This document shows positions 44,584 through 64,000 of a stretch of DNA of 64,000 bases, piece by piece. The DNA is taken from IMG/VR virus record IMGVR_UViG_3300050821_010673, positions 3,325 to 67,324 of that record. One strand, 5' to 3'. Position numbers and translations under genes: made by a program. Position 1 is the first letter of the stretch. Each line of letters starts with the position of its first letter. The DNA comes from a virus. The notes beneath the pieces are model-generated. The model was given only the letters and a program-made list of their open reading frames with translations, did no database searches and was not told the origin of the DNA.

Positions 44584-44985
44584 CTATCCTCTGAGCTCCT
44601 GGAGCGTCCGCCGGTTGTACCGGAGACCGCGGAAGCCTAGGACCTCGATCGCGATCCGGTCGGCCTCGTCCTGGACGACCCTAGGCGTCCCCTTCGACCT
44701 TGGGTGGGACTTCGTGTGCTCGGGGTACCTCAGGCGCTTCCCGACGACGTGCCCGAGCTCGTGCGCAGACATCCCGAGGACCTCCTCGTCCGTTAGTTCC
44801 GTCTCGGAGGCCTTCGCGAAACAGACCGTGTACACGCGATGATTCGTGTGGGCGAACTGGCGCCACTTCTCGGCGTGGTGTCGGTCGGCGACCGAGCAGA
44901 AGGCGAACTTCACCTTGGCGAGCCACGGGAACTTCATCGCAGCGTGCGCCCGGACGAGAGTGAAGAGGATCTCGACCCGTCCCAC
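44584..44985 (-). CDS. small HExxH zinc metalloprotease-like protein
   Basis: AHELGH ... DEAD. Confidence 0.6.
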   Translation of the reverse strand: MGRVEILFTLVRAHAAMKFPWLAKVKFAFCSVADRHHAEKWRQFAHTNHRVYTVCFAKASETELTDEEVLGMSAHELGHVVGKRLRYPEHTKSHPRSKGTPRVVQDEADRIAIEVLGFRGLRYNRRTLQELRG

Positions 44986-44986
44986 G

Positions 44987-45496
44987 TCAGTCCTCCACGA
45001 CCGGCCGTCGTCCGGTCGGAAGCGGGTTGGTGTCCTTCTTGACGCGGTCGGCGATCGTCTTCAGGTGCCCCTCGATCTTCTCGAGGAATCCGTCCTGTGT
45101 CTGGTTCTTGATCACCTCGACGATTGGCCGGGCCTCCTCGAGGAAAGCCTTGATCGAGTCGGTCGTCTGCTGGTTCGTGCAGAGGCCGGTGTAGGCCATC
45201 CGGACCGTCGCCGAGACCCTTCGAATGCTGGTCAGGGTCGCCGGGATGACGAAGGCGAGACCGAAGGTCATGAGCACGATCGCCGTGATCGGATAGGCGA
45301 CCAGTCCGACGGTCTTCAGGTCCGTGACGCCGAGGACCAGGAGTCCGGCGACGACGCACGCCAGAAGCGGCACCAGGGTCGACGCGAAGATGCAGATCTT
45401 CCAGACCCGACGGATCTCCAGATCGAGTTCCTCCGGCGAGAGGATCTCCGGAAAGACGACGGGCGGGAGCTTTTGTGGTCTGTTCAGGTCGTCCAT
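44987..45496 (-). CDS. two-TM membrane protein
   Basis: Two hydrophobic helices. Confidence 0.65.
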   Translation of the reverse strand: MDDLNRPQKLPPVVFPEILSPEELDLEIRRVWKICIFASTLVPLLACVVAGLLVLGVTDLKTVGLVAYPITAIVLMTFGLAFVIPATLTSIRRVSATVRMAYTGLCTNQQTTDSIKAFLEEARPIVEVIKNQTQDGFLEKIEGHLKTIADRVKKDTNPLPTGRRPVVED

Positions 45497-46032
45497 GGTT
45501 AGGCCCGCGTGCTCCGCTGGTCGTGGTAGACGTGGTACTGATCCTCGAAGCCCGGCTCCATGAGCGGCGTGGACCGGCCGGGCGGCTGGTACGGATTCTC
45601 CCGGGTCTTGAACGGCAAGGACAGCTGGACGCCTGGAACGCTCGGATCGGTGAAGATGATCCGGAGCCAGCTGCCGTCGACCTCCTGGACACGGACCACC
45701 TGGACGACCGTGCCGGTCTCCTTGTGCTGCCAGAATCGGGCGATCCGGATCGACTTATTGTGCGCTCCGACTCCCGGACGATTCTTGATGATGATGTACG
45801 GCGCGTCTCCCATGTCAGTTCTCCTTCTTCTTCGTGGCCTCGAGCTTCGGGAACTGCAGGTAACCCGAGGCCCCCGGGAACCCGAACATCCCACCCATCC
45901 CGACAACCGGGAGCATCCTCATGATGACCTCCAGGCAGATCACGCAGTAATCCAGTCCCATGTACGTCACAGTCCCATTCCCGGCGCAGCGGTAACATGG
46001 CTTCTTTCTCTGCAGGAACTTGAAGAGGTTGA

Positions 46033-61331: not shown

Positions 61332-61491
61332 GGGTTCCACCTTTCGGATCTAACGCCTCTTCCGGCCGGGACTCTCGTCCACAAAATGCCGTCGGGTGGG
61401 CTGGCGTCCGTGGCCCACTCCTCGTGGGAGGCCCGCGCAGGGCGCCCCGCGAGGAGGCACCGGAGGTTTCCCTCCGGTGCTCCTGGATTGC

Positions 61492-62610
61492 TTAGAACTT
61501 CTCCGGCATCCCCCGACGGGAGAACTCGTCCTCCCCACCGTCGTGGCCCATACCGGCGTTGGCCTTCTCGGTATTGACCTGGGTGAGGTAGGCGCCCATA
61601 CCGGCGTTCGCCTGCTTCGTGTTGAACGAGGTCAGGTACGCCTCGGAACCCGCGGGACGCAGGTAGCTGATCCCGGCGGGCTGCAGGTACGTCGAGAAGC
61701 CCTCGGCACCCGCCGCGGGCAGGTAGCCGTGGACGCCGCCGCCCTTGAGCTCCTTGAGCACTTCGGCCTCGATCGCCTTCCGGAAGGCGTCGGTCTCCGG
61801 CGAGCCGGAGAGGGTCGGCACGTACATCTGGACCGGGGTCCCCTGAACCGCGGCGCTGAAGCCCTGCCAGAGGGCCGCGAAGAGACCGCCGGTCAGGATC
61901 CGGGCGGACAGCTTCGGGTTCTTGAGCAGGCTGGACGCGCCCGTCAGGAGGGCCGTGCTGAGGATCGTGATCATCGGCGGAGCGTAGCTGGGGACCGGAA
62001 CGCCGGTCGGCCAGAACTGCTGGATGCCCAGCTTCGTCATCGTCAGGGATCCGCCGAAGCCGACTCCCATCTGGAGAACGGTCTCGACCGTGTCCATCGA
62101 GAACGCCGACATCAGCGCGTTCTTGATGGCCGAGACCGGATCGCTCGAGAGCCGGTACGAGGCCGACGGATTCCGGCGGACGTGCCGGTAGGACCGACGG
62201 GACGGATTCCGACGGGCCCGGCGATGCCGACGCGGATTCGCGACGACGACCGGGTTCGAGTGAACCCGACGCCGCCGGGACCGGCGGTAGCGCTTGGGGA
62301 AGTGGAAGCCGCGGATCTGCCCGCGACGACTGCCGCGCCGACGCCGGGTCGCGTACTTCGTGATCTTCCGCCATTTACGGCGGCCGACCTTGATGAAGCC
62401 GCTGGGGTTGCGATGCCGCCGGGTCGCCCGGCGCCGCTTGACGAAATGCCCCTTGGCATTCCGCGCCATGCGCCGCCCTGCCCGACGGCGCGTACGGGTG
62501 CGTGCCATCCGAATCTCCTTGCCCGTCGTGCGGGCGGTTCTGGAACGAGAACGTCTCCGCCGGGAAGCGACAGGCTTCCCGGGGTTCGCGAATATGAGAG
62601 CTCCGATCAT
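61492..62610 (-). CDS. Arg-rich NP-repeat core/membrane protein
   Basis: Protamine-like N-terminal half with RRNP/HRNP/HSNP, central TM helices, C-terminal GxxxYL repeats. Confidence 0.75.
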   Translation of the reverse strand: MIGALIFANPGKPVASRRRRSRSRTARTTGKEIRMARTRTRRRAGRRMARNAKGHFVKRRRATRRHRNPSGFIKVGRRKWRKITKYATRRRRGSRRGQIRGFHFPKRYRRSRRRRVHSNPVVVANPRRHRRARRNPSRRSYRHVRRNPSASYRLSSDPVSAIKNALMSAFSMDTVETVLQMGVGFGGSLTMTKLGIQQFWPTGVPVPSYAPPMITILSTALLTGASSLLKNPKLSARILTGGLFAALWQGFSAAVQGTPVQMYVPTLSGSPETDAFRKAIEAEVLKELKGGGVHGYLPAAGAEGFSTYLQPAGISYLRPAGSEAYLTSFNTKQANAGMGAYLTQVNTEKANAGMGHDGGEDEFSRRGMPEKF

Positions 62611-62620
62611 GAGTTCACCC

Positions 62621-64000
62621 TCAATGCCTCAGCCAGTCGCCCGCGACTTTCTTCCCCTCGAGCGGCATCATGAGCATCTTGCCGTCCGGGGAGGCGAGCA
62701 GCGGGACGGAGGGCTTCCCGCCCTTCTCGCCCCAGGTGTGCCGGTACATGTGGTTGCCCTTCTTCGAGCCCTTCGGCGGCCGGTACATCGTCTCCGGCGA
62801 GTCGCCGTAGTGCGTCAGCGCTACGACCGAGTCGATCTTGTCCTTCGAGCCCATCGGGAAGACCTTCCAGGTGACGCACTTCGCGCCCTTGTTGGCGGCC
62901 TTCTGAATCTTCATCGCGTCGTGGCACTGCTTGACGAGGTCCCAGTTGCCGATCCGCTCGGCGAGCTTGAGGGCCTGCGCGATCGTCAGCTTCGTGCCGG
63001 GCTTCGGGAGGCGGGCGCCGGGGTTCGACAGCGTCGTCCCGGCCATCTTCTGGGCCCGGTCGGCGATTCTGACCGCCGCGCGCTTAGCGCTCTTCGGACC
63101 GTGCCGAAAGACTACCTTCGCCTTCGCGAACGCCTGACCAGAACGCTCCGAGCGCGTGAAGCCGGGGCTGAACGCCGAGCCGTGCCGGAGATCGTAGCGT
63201 GCGTCACGAAGGACTCGCGCCGTCTCTTTACGATTCAGCGGATTCGAGCCGACCGGCATCGCGAGCCGACGCCGCCGGGTCGTCGTGCCGCCGCGCCGTC
63301 CGGCGCCCGTGTCGAGCCACTGGCGCTCGAGGGCGGTCCGGGCCGACTGGCTCAGCGTGACCCAGGGGAAGCGCGCGTACGACGCGGCGACGGCCTCCGG
63401 GAATCCGACGAAGCCGAGAATCTCGTACCGCTGACGGCCGGACATCTGGTCCCACTGGACTGAGACCGGCGGATTCGCCAGGAAGATGGTCTGGAGGAGT
63501 GGATTTCTATGAACGATGTGAGCCGTGATCCCCCAGTTTCCTGACAATGGAAGACGGGAAACACCGAGATCGTAGTAGTCCTTGCTCAGGCTCGTAAGGT
63601 TCTCGCGAAGGTACTTCTCGGCTGCAGCTTTCCCCTTCGATCCTTTTCTGAATTCCTTGACGATCGAGTACGGATTCTTCCGGACGTGCTTGTGCCTGGG
63701 ATTCGAGCAGACCGGATTCGAGCAGGGGTTCTTCCGGAGCCCGAGCTCCATCTCGGCAGTCCGGTTGATGATCTTGTGGCCGACTCGCTTGTACGGCTGC
63801 TCTCCGAAGAGAGCGACCGCCGAGCCCATGCCGACCGCGACTCCTGCAGCCTCGGCGGCAGCTTCGCGGTTGAACGGCTTCGCGCGACGCGAGATGTCCT
63901 GATAGCGACGAGCGACGCGTGCGGCCTTGGCGACCTCGCCACGGTTCAGCGGGTTCATCCGAGACCGTCCGATCCCGTACGCCTTCAGGAACTTCATCGC
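62621..64000 (-). CDS. basic NP-repeat protein (probably 5'-truncated by the window)
   Basis: RMNP, RKNP twice, CSNP twice, HRNP, LANP, GSNP, LSNP separate short modules; frame open to the window edge. Confidence 0.7.
   Translation of the reverse strand, partial: AMKFLKAYGIGRSRMNPLNRGEVAKAARVARRYQDISRRAKPFNREAAAEAAGVAVGMGSAVALFGEQPYKRVGHKIINRTAEMELGLRKNPCSNPVCSNPRHKHVRKNPYSIVKEFRKGSKGKAAAEKYLRENLTSLSKDYYDLGVSRLPLSGNWGITAHIVHRNPLLQTIFLANPPVSVQWDQMSGRQRYEILGFVGFPEAVAASYARFPWVTLSQSARTALERQWLDTGAGRRGGTTTRRRRLAMPVGSNPLNRKETARVLRDARYDLRHGSAFSPGFTRSERSGQAFAKAKVVFRHGPKSAKRAAVRIADRAQKMAGTTLSNPGARLPKPGTKLTIAQALKLAERIGNWDLVKQCHDAMKIQKAANKGAKCVTWKVFPMGSKDKIDSVVALTHYGDSPETMYRPPKGSKKGNHMYRHTWGEKGGKPSVPLLASPDGKMLMMPLEGKKVAGDWLRH

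Follow-up and report, generated by a model that had tools for sequence, protein, structure and literature searches.

Organisation of the minus-strand block and genome size

The 64,000-nucleotide stretch of DNA analysed here, referred to as the window, corresponds to bases 3325-67324 of one viral contig of 67,324 bp (IMG/VR record IMGVR_UViG_3300050821_010673). This report deals with the block between positions 44584 and 64000 of the window, which comprises about 26 genes and contains, side by side, the genes of a double jelly-roll (DJR) protein of 318 amino acids (59598-60554) and of a single jelly-roll (SJR) protein of 217 amino acids (60687-61340). The block is most probably the virion module of an uncultured bacterial DJR virus with a double-stranded DNA (dsDNA) genome of about 70.5 kb, belonging to the PRD1-adenovirus lineage (Bamfordvirae) and distantly related to Salisaeta phage SSIP-1. 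All features of the block lie on the minus strand, and coordinates follow the numbering of the window unless stated otherwise.

Since the contig is GC-rich (55-68% GC), the GC content of third codon positions (GC3) was used for gene calling. The GC3 frame analysis bore out the initial annotation, made from the sequence without database searches, which had described about 19 kb of co-oriented genes at 44584-64000. Plus-strand genes occupy positions 305-44333. Further minus-strand genes are present at contig bases 95 to ~3300, left of the window, and alignment to related IMG/VR contigs showed that both minus-strand stretches form a single module on a circular map, of which ~3.1 kb are absent from the assembly. 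No terminal repeats, direct or inverted, were found on the 67,324-bp contig, for which CheckV estimated a completeness of 93%; direct terminal repeats are present in three relatives of 70.9, 71.0 and 72.7 kb (CheckV completeness 100%). The 318-aa protein has 103 clusters of relatives, 12 of which are located on contigs of 64-75 kb. The genome size is about 70.5 kb: the initial statement of a genome above 64 kb was right about its being large and is corrected to this value. No tRNA genes were found.

In all five relatives examined, the missing 3.1 kb encode a protein of ~545 aa (e.g. L002:3610-5283) with the invariant motifs GDCDT, SHVW and LD-ST. It displays a transglutaminase-like Cys-His-Asp core and a linker rich in Pro and Ala, together with a membrane anchor at the C-terminus and an Arg tail; with this core and anchor in hand, its assignment as a portal, terminase or ATPase was dropped. 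Conservation of the module was counted across nine related loci. The conserved core, found in eight or nine of them, consists of the DJR protein, the SJR protein, a 241-aa protein and an Arg-rich protein, and a large Asn-Pro-rich protein also belongs to it.

Predicted fold and internal duplication of the 318-aa protein

The structure of the 318-aa protein was predicted with AlphaFold2 (AF2) using 41 aligned relatives as input. The model, with a predicted local distance difference test (pLDDT) of 87.6 and a predicted template modelling score (pTM) of 0.84, shows two beta-sandwich halves with a connecting helix. It was compared with VIA-align against 48,161 chains, where rows within 1 Z unit count as tied. 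Enzymes of the GH172/DUF2961 family gave the top matches (8ic8, 4kq7 and 7v1v, Z 11.1, 10.7 and 10.6, over 237-243 residues), and the major capsid protein (MCP) of STIV (Z 10.2, 230 residues aligned), PRD1 P3 (9.3, 235) and PM2 P2 (8.5, 215) were also matched, along with the proteins of phiCjT23 (8.3), FLiP (8.1), PBCV-1 (8.1) and faustovirus (7.0). These matches cover both halves of the model. Foldseek likewise placed GH172 at the top (probability 1.00) and returned PNGase F and PHM as well. In the ESM Atlas the nearest named clusters are the PM2-type P2_N/P2_C at 0.77-0.78, below the level at which the tool takes a match for more than a lead.

Similarity to GH172/DUF2961 glycosidases is seen in the fold; the sequence identity is 8%, Pfam returned no DUF2961 match for the 318-aa protein (one chance-level row only) and the gene lies in a viral structural block. 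Sequence searches were otherwise silent on its function. The 103 related clusters (90% identity; 45-100% identical to the protein) carry no functional name, being 'hypothetical protein' or nameless. A profile search of 1.84 billion representatives extended this group to a capsid superfamily of 455 clusters at E<=1e-3, of which 217 at E<=1e-10. The family profile matched nothing below E 0.37 among PDB sequences, and tblastn of the protein against 50,697 phage records gave no match. The family occurs on viral contigs.

When three copies of the 318-aa protein were modelled together, they assembled into a head-to-tail ring with a score of 0.91 (0.90, 0.91 and 0.92 in the individual runs) against 0.00 for the best of three controls. 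Contacts agreed to at least 89% between runs, and the partner pLDDT was at least 87. In the calibration of the tool, 20 of 30 proteins solved as pairs came up to the mark, and so did one of 23 solved as single chains; these counts were obtained with two copies and the tool's own alignments and hold only roughly for this trimer. The pass of the 318-aa protein may also stem in part from its likeness to solved DJR trimers.

The internal two-fold duplication pointed out in the initial annotation was recovered by profile-profile comparison of the N- and C-terminal halves, built from 63 diverse members of the family (probability 99.8%, E 6.9e-29, 120 columns). BLAST between the two halves of the 318-aa protein itself gave no match. 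Because the halves align as profiles, yet escape BLAST, the duplication is, as judged from the sequences, real, ancient and unusually well preserved.

With PRD1, PM2 and STIV, the group thus shares the capsid-protein fold over its full length and a predicted trimer, as well as an SJR protein next to the MCP and many small membrane proteins in the structural module. It differs from them by the lack of sequence similarity, by a genome of ~70 kb compared with 10-18 kb, by a replication module of large-tailed-phage type, by two jelly rolls which can still be aligned as profiles, and by an FtsK-HerA ATPase that was not found here.

The 217-aa protein and its flanking hairpins

The AF2 model of the 217-aa protein (pLDDT 75.2, pTM 0.72) contains disordered ends and one disordered loop. 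The top Foldseek match is the capsid protein of SPV1 (E 2.9e-3, probability 0.99). VIA-align also gave SPV1 first (Z 8.7, 149 residues aligned), then HHIV-2 (7.4), HCIV-1 (6.9), STIV A223 (6.6) and P23-77 VP17 (6.3) and VP16 (6.0); only the SPV1 score exceeds the range that the tool calls 'common'. Jelly-roll folds had been assigned by eye in the initial annotation to four adjacent genes of this region (60687, 59598, 58883 and 58456), with AlphaFold and Foldseek named as the check. For the two of these four candidates that were folded the assignment proved correct, the protein at 59598 being double and the one at 60687 single, and no non-jelly-roll fold was obtained. The family of the 217-aa protein counts 74 clusters, none with a functional name, and tblastn against the 50,697 phage records returned chance-level rows only. 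A divergent paralogue of the protein is encoded in the accessory arm on the plus strand (42813-43427; BLASTP E 3e-6, 32% identity over 56 residues).

Both sides of the SJR gene are rich in hairpins. The intergenic leader (61341-61491, of which 145 nt were folded) has a minimum free energy (MFE) of -75.6 kcal/mol (z -3.74), equalled by none of 200 shuffles, and contains a perfect stem of 10 bp. The region between the SJR and DJR genes (60555-60686) reaches an MFE of -61.2 kcal/mol (z -3.60; one of 200 shuffles equal), with a perfect stem of 11 bp closed by a UUCG loop. These hairpins may be a device that gives the SJR gene its own transcript stability or dosage.

As judged from the model, the 217-aa protein may be a penton or a second shell protein. 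If the latter applied in full, both jelly-roll proteins would be major components of the shell and share its capsomers, as described for P23-77 and SSIP-1, and the shell would not be of PRD1 type. Passages in reviews give SSIP-1 two major capsid protein types; the SJR and DJR genes are equally conserved, the strong hairpins around the SJR gene could set a separate expression level, and its best matches (SPV1, HHIV-2, HCIV-1) are shell proteins and not pentons. Against this arrangement, the DJR protein alone is predicted with high confidence to trimerise, and the penton STIV A223 is matched as well, at a Z of 6.6 where rows within 1 Z are tied. The P23-77/HHIV-2 type (Helvetiavirae) builds its shell from two separate SJR MCPs, whereas the DJR protein found here is fused and predicted to be trimeric. 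Mixed capsomers are regarded as possible but doubtful.

Search for tailed-phage hallmarks and for a packaging ATPase

No terminase, portal, HK97 capsid or tail family was detected among the ORFs (open reading frames) of the block with Pfam and PHROGs, in line with the initial annotation, which had recognised none of these genes. In three rounds of PHROGs searches (E<=0.01) matches were obtained for 0 of 10, 2 of 10 and, after re-calling, 0 of 10 ORFs, the only families being a glycosyltransferase and one of unknown function. Pfam (E<=0.1) gave rows for 3 of 20 ORFs, only a GT4 glycosyltransferase being above its cut-off, and a single sub-threshold row among 10 re-called ORFs. The first scans had included ORFs in the wrong frame (61292-62374 and 44934-45998) and overlong ones (the long forms of 52471, 48591 and 46455). 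ORFs 53833-54108 and 53612-53836 were scanned with PHROGs only, and 46933-47190 with Pfam only.

In order to look beyond the block, six-frame searches covered the 67,324-bp genome and four relatives, three of which are complete with terminal repeats. Terminase_6N and TerL_ATPase, the terminase families included (Terminase_3 and GpA lay outside the search), were found in none of the five genomes. Phage_portal and Phage_capsid, the sole portal and HK97 families searched in this way, did not exceed the cut-off in any of them either; each gave one stray row, of 14 bits in a BKACE enzyme gene and of 12 bits in the transglutaminase-like gene, respectively. Terminase, portal and HK97 genes elsewhere on the contig, which the initial annotation had considered fatal to its proposal, thus produced no match above cut-off in this genome and its four relatives.

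The same searches were directed at ATPases. FtsK_SpoIIIE did not reach the cut-off in any of the five genomes, a single row of 11 bits falling inside an orthologue of the D5 primase-helicase. Six-frame inspection for Walker A motifs yielded only the DinG-like helicase (305-2230) and the Sak4-like AAA_24 protein (2494-3831), and no such motif in the module or in the upstream 10 kb of the relatives. Beyond three replication or recombination proteins no P-loop ATPase was found. The Sak4-like protein was considered as a packaging ATPase, a role that is not supported: its gene belongs to the replication cluster, and its PHROG match (1.8e-25) is to Sak4. The earlier remark that no packaging ATPase is visible holds for the block, for the whole contig and for the genes that the relatives carry in the missing stretch.

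These results bear directly on the idea of a very divergent tailed phage, in which terminase, portal and HK97 capsid protein escape the profiles and the DJR protein would be an accessory trimer, either a GH172-like glycosidase or a receptor-binding protein. The GH172 glycosidases as top structural matches are what such an accessory protein would give, and several genes downstream are fibre-like and hypervariable. The BFVD matches include many beta-sandwich proteins from tail fibres or minor tails (TM 0.15-0.3), a coiled-coil protein of ~700 aa is encoded upstream, and most ORFs of the block have no structure prediction. However, no P-loop ATPase fit for a terminase is present, the terminase, portal and HK97 families searched gave no match above cut-off in the five genomes, and the DJR gene is among the most conserved of the block, lacks a DUF2961 match and is paired with an SJR gene of viral type. 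The group is, in addition, linked to SSIP-1, a cultured tailless phage. A tailed phage is consequently held to be very unlikely.

Relation to Salisaeta phage SSIP-1

As far as profile comparisons can tell, SSIP-1 is the closest cultured relative of the group, and a distant one. A table in PMC6260650 lists this phage with a genome of 44 kb and a capsid of T=49, a case overlooked by the initial annotation when it limited bacterial viruses of this kind to 10-20 kb. Passages in reviews describe a membrane-containing particle of ~100 nm with almost no similarity to database sequences.

The profile of the 63 diverse capsid proteins was searched against the 57 proteins of SSIP-1. It ranked gp47 first (E 1.1e-5, the next protein at 0.4), and hhalign gave a probability of 57.9% over 87 columns. 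With a narrow capsid profile, gp47 was obtained at E 0.0024 among the 57, a small ORF scoring better, and the hhalign probability was 13.9%. The top BFVD match of the 318-aa model is an unnamed viral protein of 256 aa, I1ZBI0 (E 1e-7, TM 0.55/0.67), whose identity with gp47 was not confirmed and agrees in length (256 aa) only. A word-indexed search with gp47 returned gp47 itself and nothing else, and for that reason no profile could be built from it. A second link is given by the ~545-aa protein: the profile of five orthologues matched SSIP-1 gp34 at E 2.7e-6, and gp34 itself belongs to Pfam Transglut_core (8.9e-7).

The gene arrangement offers further likenesses. In SSIP-1, gp46 (211 aa) and then gp47 (256 aa) are adjacent structural genes, as is the SJR-DJR pair here; the structural protein gp34 is transglutaminase-like and anchored at its C-terminus, features shared by the ~545-aa protein; and in both viruses the capsid genes come after a giant or long structural protein (gp43 of 2319 aa in SSIP-1). 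Neither SSIP-1 nor the group has a terminase or portal annotation.

The differences are nevertheless considerable. No similarity at the level of BLAST exists between the two, the genome described here is ~60% larger, and SSIP-1 carries an integrase-family gene. The SSIP-1 virion contains an AAA_25 ATPase, gp40, in which a Walker A motif is present. This protein has no counterpart here: against the only RecA-like candidate, BLASTP gave E 1.3. Finally, SSIP-1 is counted in reviews among the 'two single beta-barrel' viruses, whereas the main protein of the present group is a fused DJR.

Other genes of the module

The end of the contig lies within the gene of a large, basic, Asn-Pro-rich protein, of which the 3' part (459 codons, 62621-64000) is present in the window. 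Its orthologues measure 608-1259 aa and are 32-59% identical, a spread in size that looks modular. It contains nine NP dipeptides where 1.1 are expected, a number reached in none of 2000 shuffles, and it is a candidate internal or core protein. The adjacent gene (61492-62610) encodes a 372-aa protein rich in Arg and Lys (39% over the first 150 aa) with a hydrophobic segment at residue 213; it is kept in all nine related loci at 38-77% identity and shows seven NP dipeptides against 0.74 expected (reached in none of 2000 shuffles). This protein is a candidate DNA-condensing or membrane-associated core protein. Arg and Lys together make up 18-20% of both proteins, neither of which has a Pfam or PHROGs match. 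The Asn-Pro dipeptide is 8- to 9-fold enriched in the two, mostly after a basic or small residue, and such motifs could be cleavage sites.

Downstream of the DJR gene, a conserved structural protein of 241 aa (58883-59608) is found in eight of nine loci at 42-91% identity, with no match in Pfam, PHROGs or the PDB sequences (phmmer). It is followed by a protein of ~137-150 aa (58456-58908), of which full-length orthologues occur in three of nine loci (L002-L004; 68-94% identical over 141-148 aligned residues). Five further loci gave partial matches (18-82 residues), and neither Pfam nor PHROGs gave a match. A 297-aa protein (57562-58455), a candidate vertex or spike base, has orthologues in four of nine loci (29-51%), no match in Pfam or PHROGs, and chance-level rows only among PDB sequences (phmmer). 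The families of the 241-, ~150-, 297- and 372-aa proteins showed no profile relation to the jelly-roll families, a result which is uninformative on their folds.

The next five genes (54147-57552) form a variable cluster. A 412-aa protein without match among PDB sequences (phmmer; 56314-57552), the product of 56004-56357 and a Gly-rich protein (54147-54875) have no orthologue in the nine loci, and the remaining two genes have one in a single locus (55281-56000) and in two loci (54886-55281). The latter matches phrog_27064, of unknown function, at E 0.0015, the only match of the cluster in Pfam or PHROGs. Because orthologues are restricted to 0-2 of nine loci, the pattern is that of host-recognition proteins, and the products are candidate spikes, fibres or host-recognition proteins, their fibre-like look having been judged by eye.

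A cluster of predicted membrane proteins follows (48591-54108), comprising the genes 53833-54108, 53612-53836, 52896-53522, 52471-52869, 51380-52456, 50088-51383, 49477-50085 and 48591-49472, again with no Pfam or PHROGs match. According to the frame analysis, the listed long ORF 52471-53559 corresponds to two of these genes in different frames (52896-53522 and 52471-52869), and in ORFs 49477-50712 and 48591-49646 coding is restricted to the 3' parts. Hydrophobic segments were identified in 53833, 52896, 52471, 51380, 50088 and 49477, and the last four possess C-terminal anchors followed by basic residues (Lys/Arg). On Kyte-Doolittle hydropathy, a hydrophobic segment of 17 residues is present in 10 of 26 block ORFs versus 8 of 46 ORFs of the plus arm, and C-terminal anchors number four versus none; the initial count of at least six membrane-anchored proteins agrees with this.

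A GT4-type glycosyltransferase (47187-48548) is the sole gene of the block with a named family; it matches phrog_7162 at E 2.6e-40 and Pfam Glyco_trans_1_4 at 27.1 bits for a cut-off of 27. Six small genes called from GC3 frames close the block (44584-47190): 46933-47190, 46455-46922 (acidic tail), 46033-46452 (Cys-rich), 45499-45906, 44987-45496 (two hydrophobic segments) and, as the last one, 44584-44985. This last product carries an HELGH motif resembling the HExxH of zinc metallopeptidases, with no family match. None of the six gave a Pfam row above cut-off, and the four scanned with PHROGs gave no match.

On the far side of the contig junction, the structural module opens with a highly charged coiled-coil protein of ~690-730 aa (contig bases 1207 to ~3300, minus strand; L001), followed by two helical proteins of ~104 aa and a zinc-ribbon protein of 63 aa. 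The coiled-coil protein, for which no family match but a weak Dynamitin row was obtained, is a candidate scaffold or capsid size ruler. Seven genes of the module are known only from relatives; none matches Pfam at E<=0.01, and for the five also searched in PHROGs nothing came up but families of unknown function at E 0.046-0.098.

Plus-strand arm and host

The plus-strand arm encodes a D5-type primase-helicase, the Sak4-like AAA_24 protein, the DinG-like helicase, ThyX and GP88, and the initial description of a replication arm like that of tailed phages is well founded in these genes. The region 9270-22568 (plus strand) also contains at least four glycosyltransferase-like proteins, a methyltransferase-GT2 fusion, a hexapeptide acyltransferase and a BKACE enzyme. 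Together with the GT4 enzyme of the block, the sugar-modifying genes suggest that virion proteins or the host surface are glycosylated.

Motifs resembling Shine-Dalgarno sequences precede 18 of 26 block genes, compared with a background of 25% (p 3e-6). Among the GTDB species genomes, the capsid gene has one match, on a 14-kb contig of a metagenome-assembled genome (MAG) in a Thermoanaerobaculia bin; with this contig as the sole match, the search gave no sign of prophages and points to no firm host. A bacterial virus is probable. One might also think of a eukaryotic or archaeal member of this capsid lineage (a polinton-like virus, a small relative of giant viruses or an archaeal virus), as many eukaryotic viruses have DJR capsids, the size of the genome lies between those of polinton-like and giant viruses, and one cluster of the capsid protein is labelled as a Thermoplasmata archaeon bin. 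Such labels on short contigs are weak in either direction, the Thermoanaerobaculia label being one that points to bacteria. The genes of the plus arm are of phage type (the Sak4-like protein, the mycobacteriophage GP88 family, a D5 protein closest to those of phages, ThyX), the enriched Shine-Dalgarno-like motifs go along with dense, overlapping genes and GTG and TTG starts, and the nearest cultured relative, SSIP-1, infects a bacterium. All this makes a eukaryotic or archaeal virus extremely improbable.

Proposed virion and packaging

In the proposed virion, head-to-tail homotrimers of the 318-aa DJR protein would form the pseudo-hexagonal capsomers of the shell, as predicted from the models, and the 217-aa SJR protein would be placed at the five-fold vertices or make up a second shell component. 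The tail-anchored proteins (48591-54108) may populate an internal lipid membrane, the products of the variable genes (54147-57552) would be vertex spikes which set the host range, and the Arg-rich and Asn-Pro-rich proteins (61492-64000) could reside inside with the DNA. The transglutaminase-like protein, of Cys-protease fold, may act in maturation or in penetration of the cell wall, and the ~700-aa coiled-coil protein as a scaffold or size-determining protein. The particle is presumably tailless.

Several points weigh against this proposal. The fold alone leaves the capsid role of the 318-aa protein unproven, because GH172 enzymes are at the top and tied within 1 Z with viral capsid proteins, and the Foldseek TM-scores of the model to solved structures are modest (~0.4). 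The SJR protein found gp46 as the best of the 57 SSIP-1 proteins, but not significantly (E 0.23; hhalign probability 2.1%). Most viruses of the lineage encode a packaging ATPase, and none turned up in the module or elsewhere in the genome. Since only two of the ~26 block proteins were folded, HK97-fold, portal or tail proteins could hide among the other ORFs. The internal membrane is deduced from hydropathy alone, and two of the ten hydrophobic segments of the block are located in proteins that are likely soluble beta proteins. Lastly, virions have yet to be observed.

With no packaging ATPase recognisable, it has to be asked how a jelly-roll capsid takes up 70 kb of dsDNA. The options would be the Sak4-like ATPase, a motor of the host or condensation of the DNA without a motor. 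Yutin et al. (2018; PMC5894146) proposed the last one for FLiP and the 'Odin' group, whose small genomes were thought to make ATPase-free encapsidation plausible. As these viruses are described there, the present group has in common with them a DJR capsid without detectable packaging ATPase and a conserved small gene just upstream of the MCP, a likeness by features; it differs by its ~70 kb of dsDNA compared with their small genomes. A further-reaching proposal would be that bacterial jelly-roll viruses include a widespread lineage, of class rank, whose genomes grew to ~70 kb without a dedicated packaging motor, the shell being built around, or filled with, DNA condensed by the Arg-rich and modular Asn-Pro proteins, which would be cut by the transglutaminase-like protease or by self-cleavage at Asn-Pro. 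This is unlikely on present evidence; if true, the lineage would be a bacterial counterpart of the core of adenovirus or African swine fever virus.

Significance

The published picture of genome sizes, as presented in passages of Yutin et al. (2018; PMC5894146), assigns to prokaryotic DJR viruses 7-18 kb, among the smallest dsDNA genomes, with SSIP-1 (44 kb) as the cultured outlier. This picture is broken by a common uncultured group (103 clusters, 455 in the wider superfamily, complete genomes of 70.9-72.7 kb), which joins a PRD1-type shell to the replication and accessory load of a large tailed phage. No description of prokaryotic jelly-roll viruses of ~70 kb or of relatives of SSIP-1 was found in the full text of the literature, supplements excluded. 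SSIP-1, long an orphan, gains a family, and the comparison suggests two jelly rolls instead of one in its gp47. The capsid halves, which can still be aligned with each other, are useful material on the origin of the double jelly roll.

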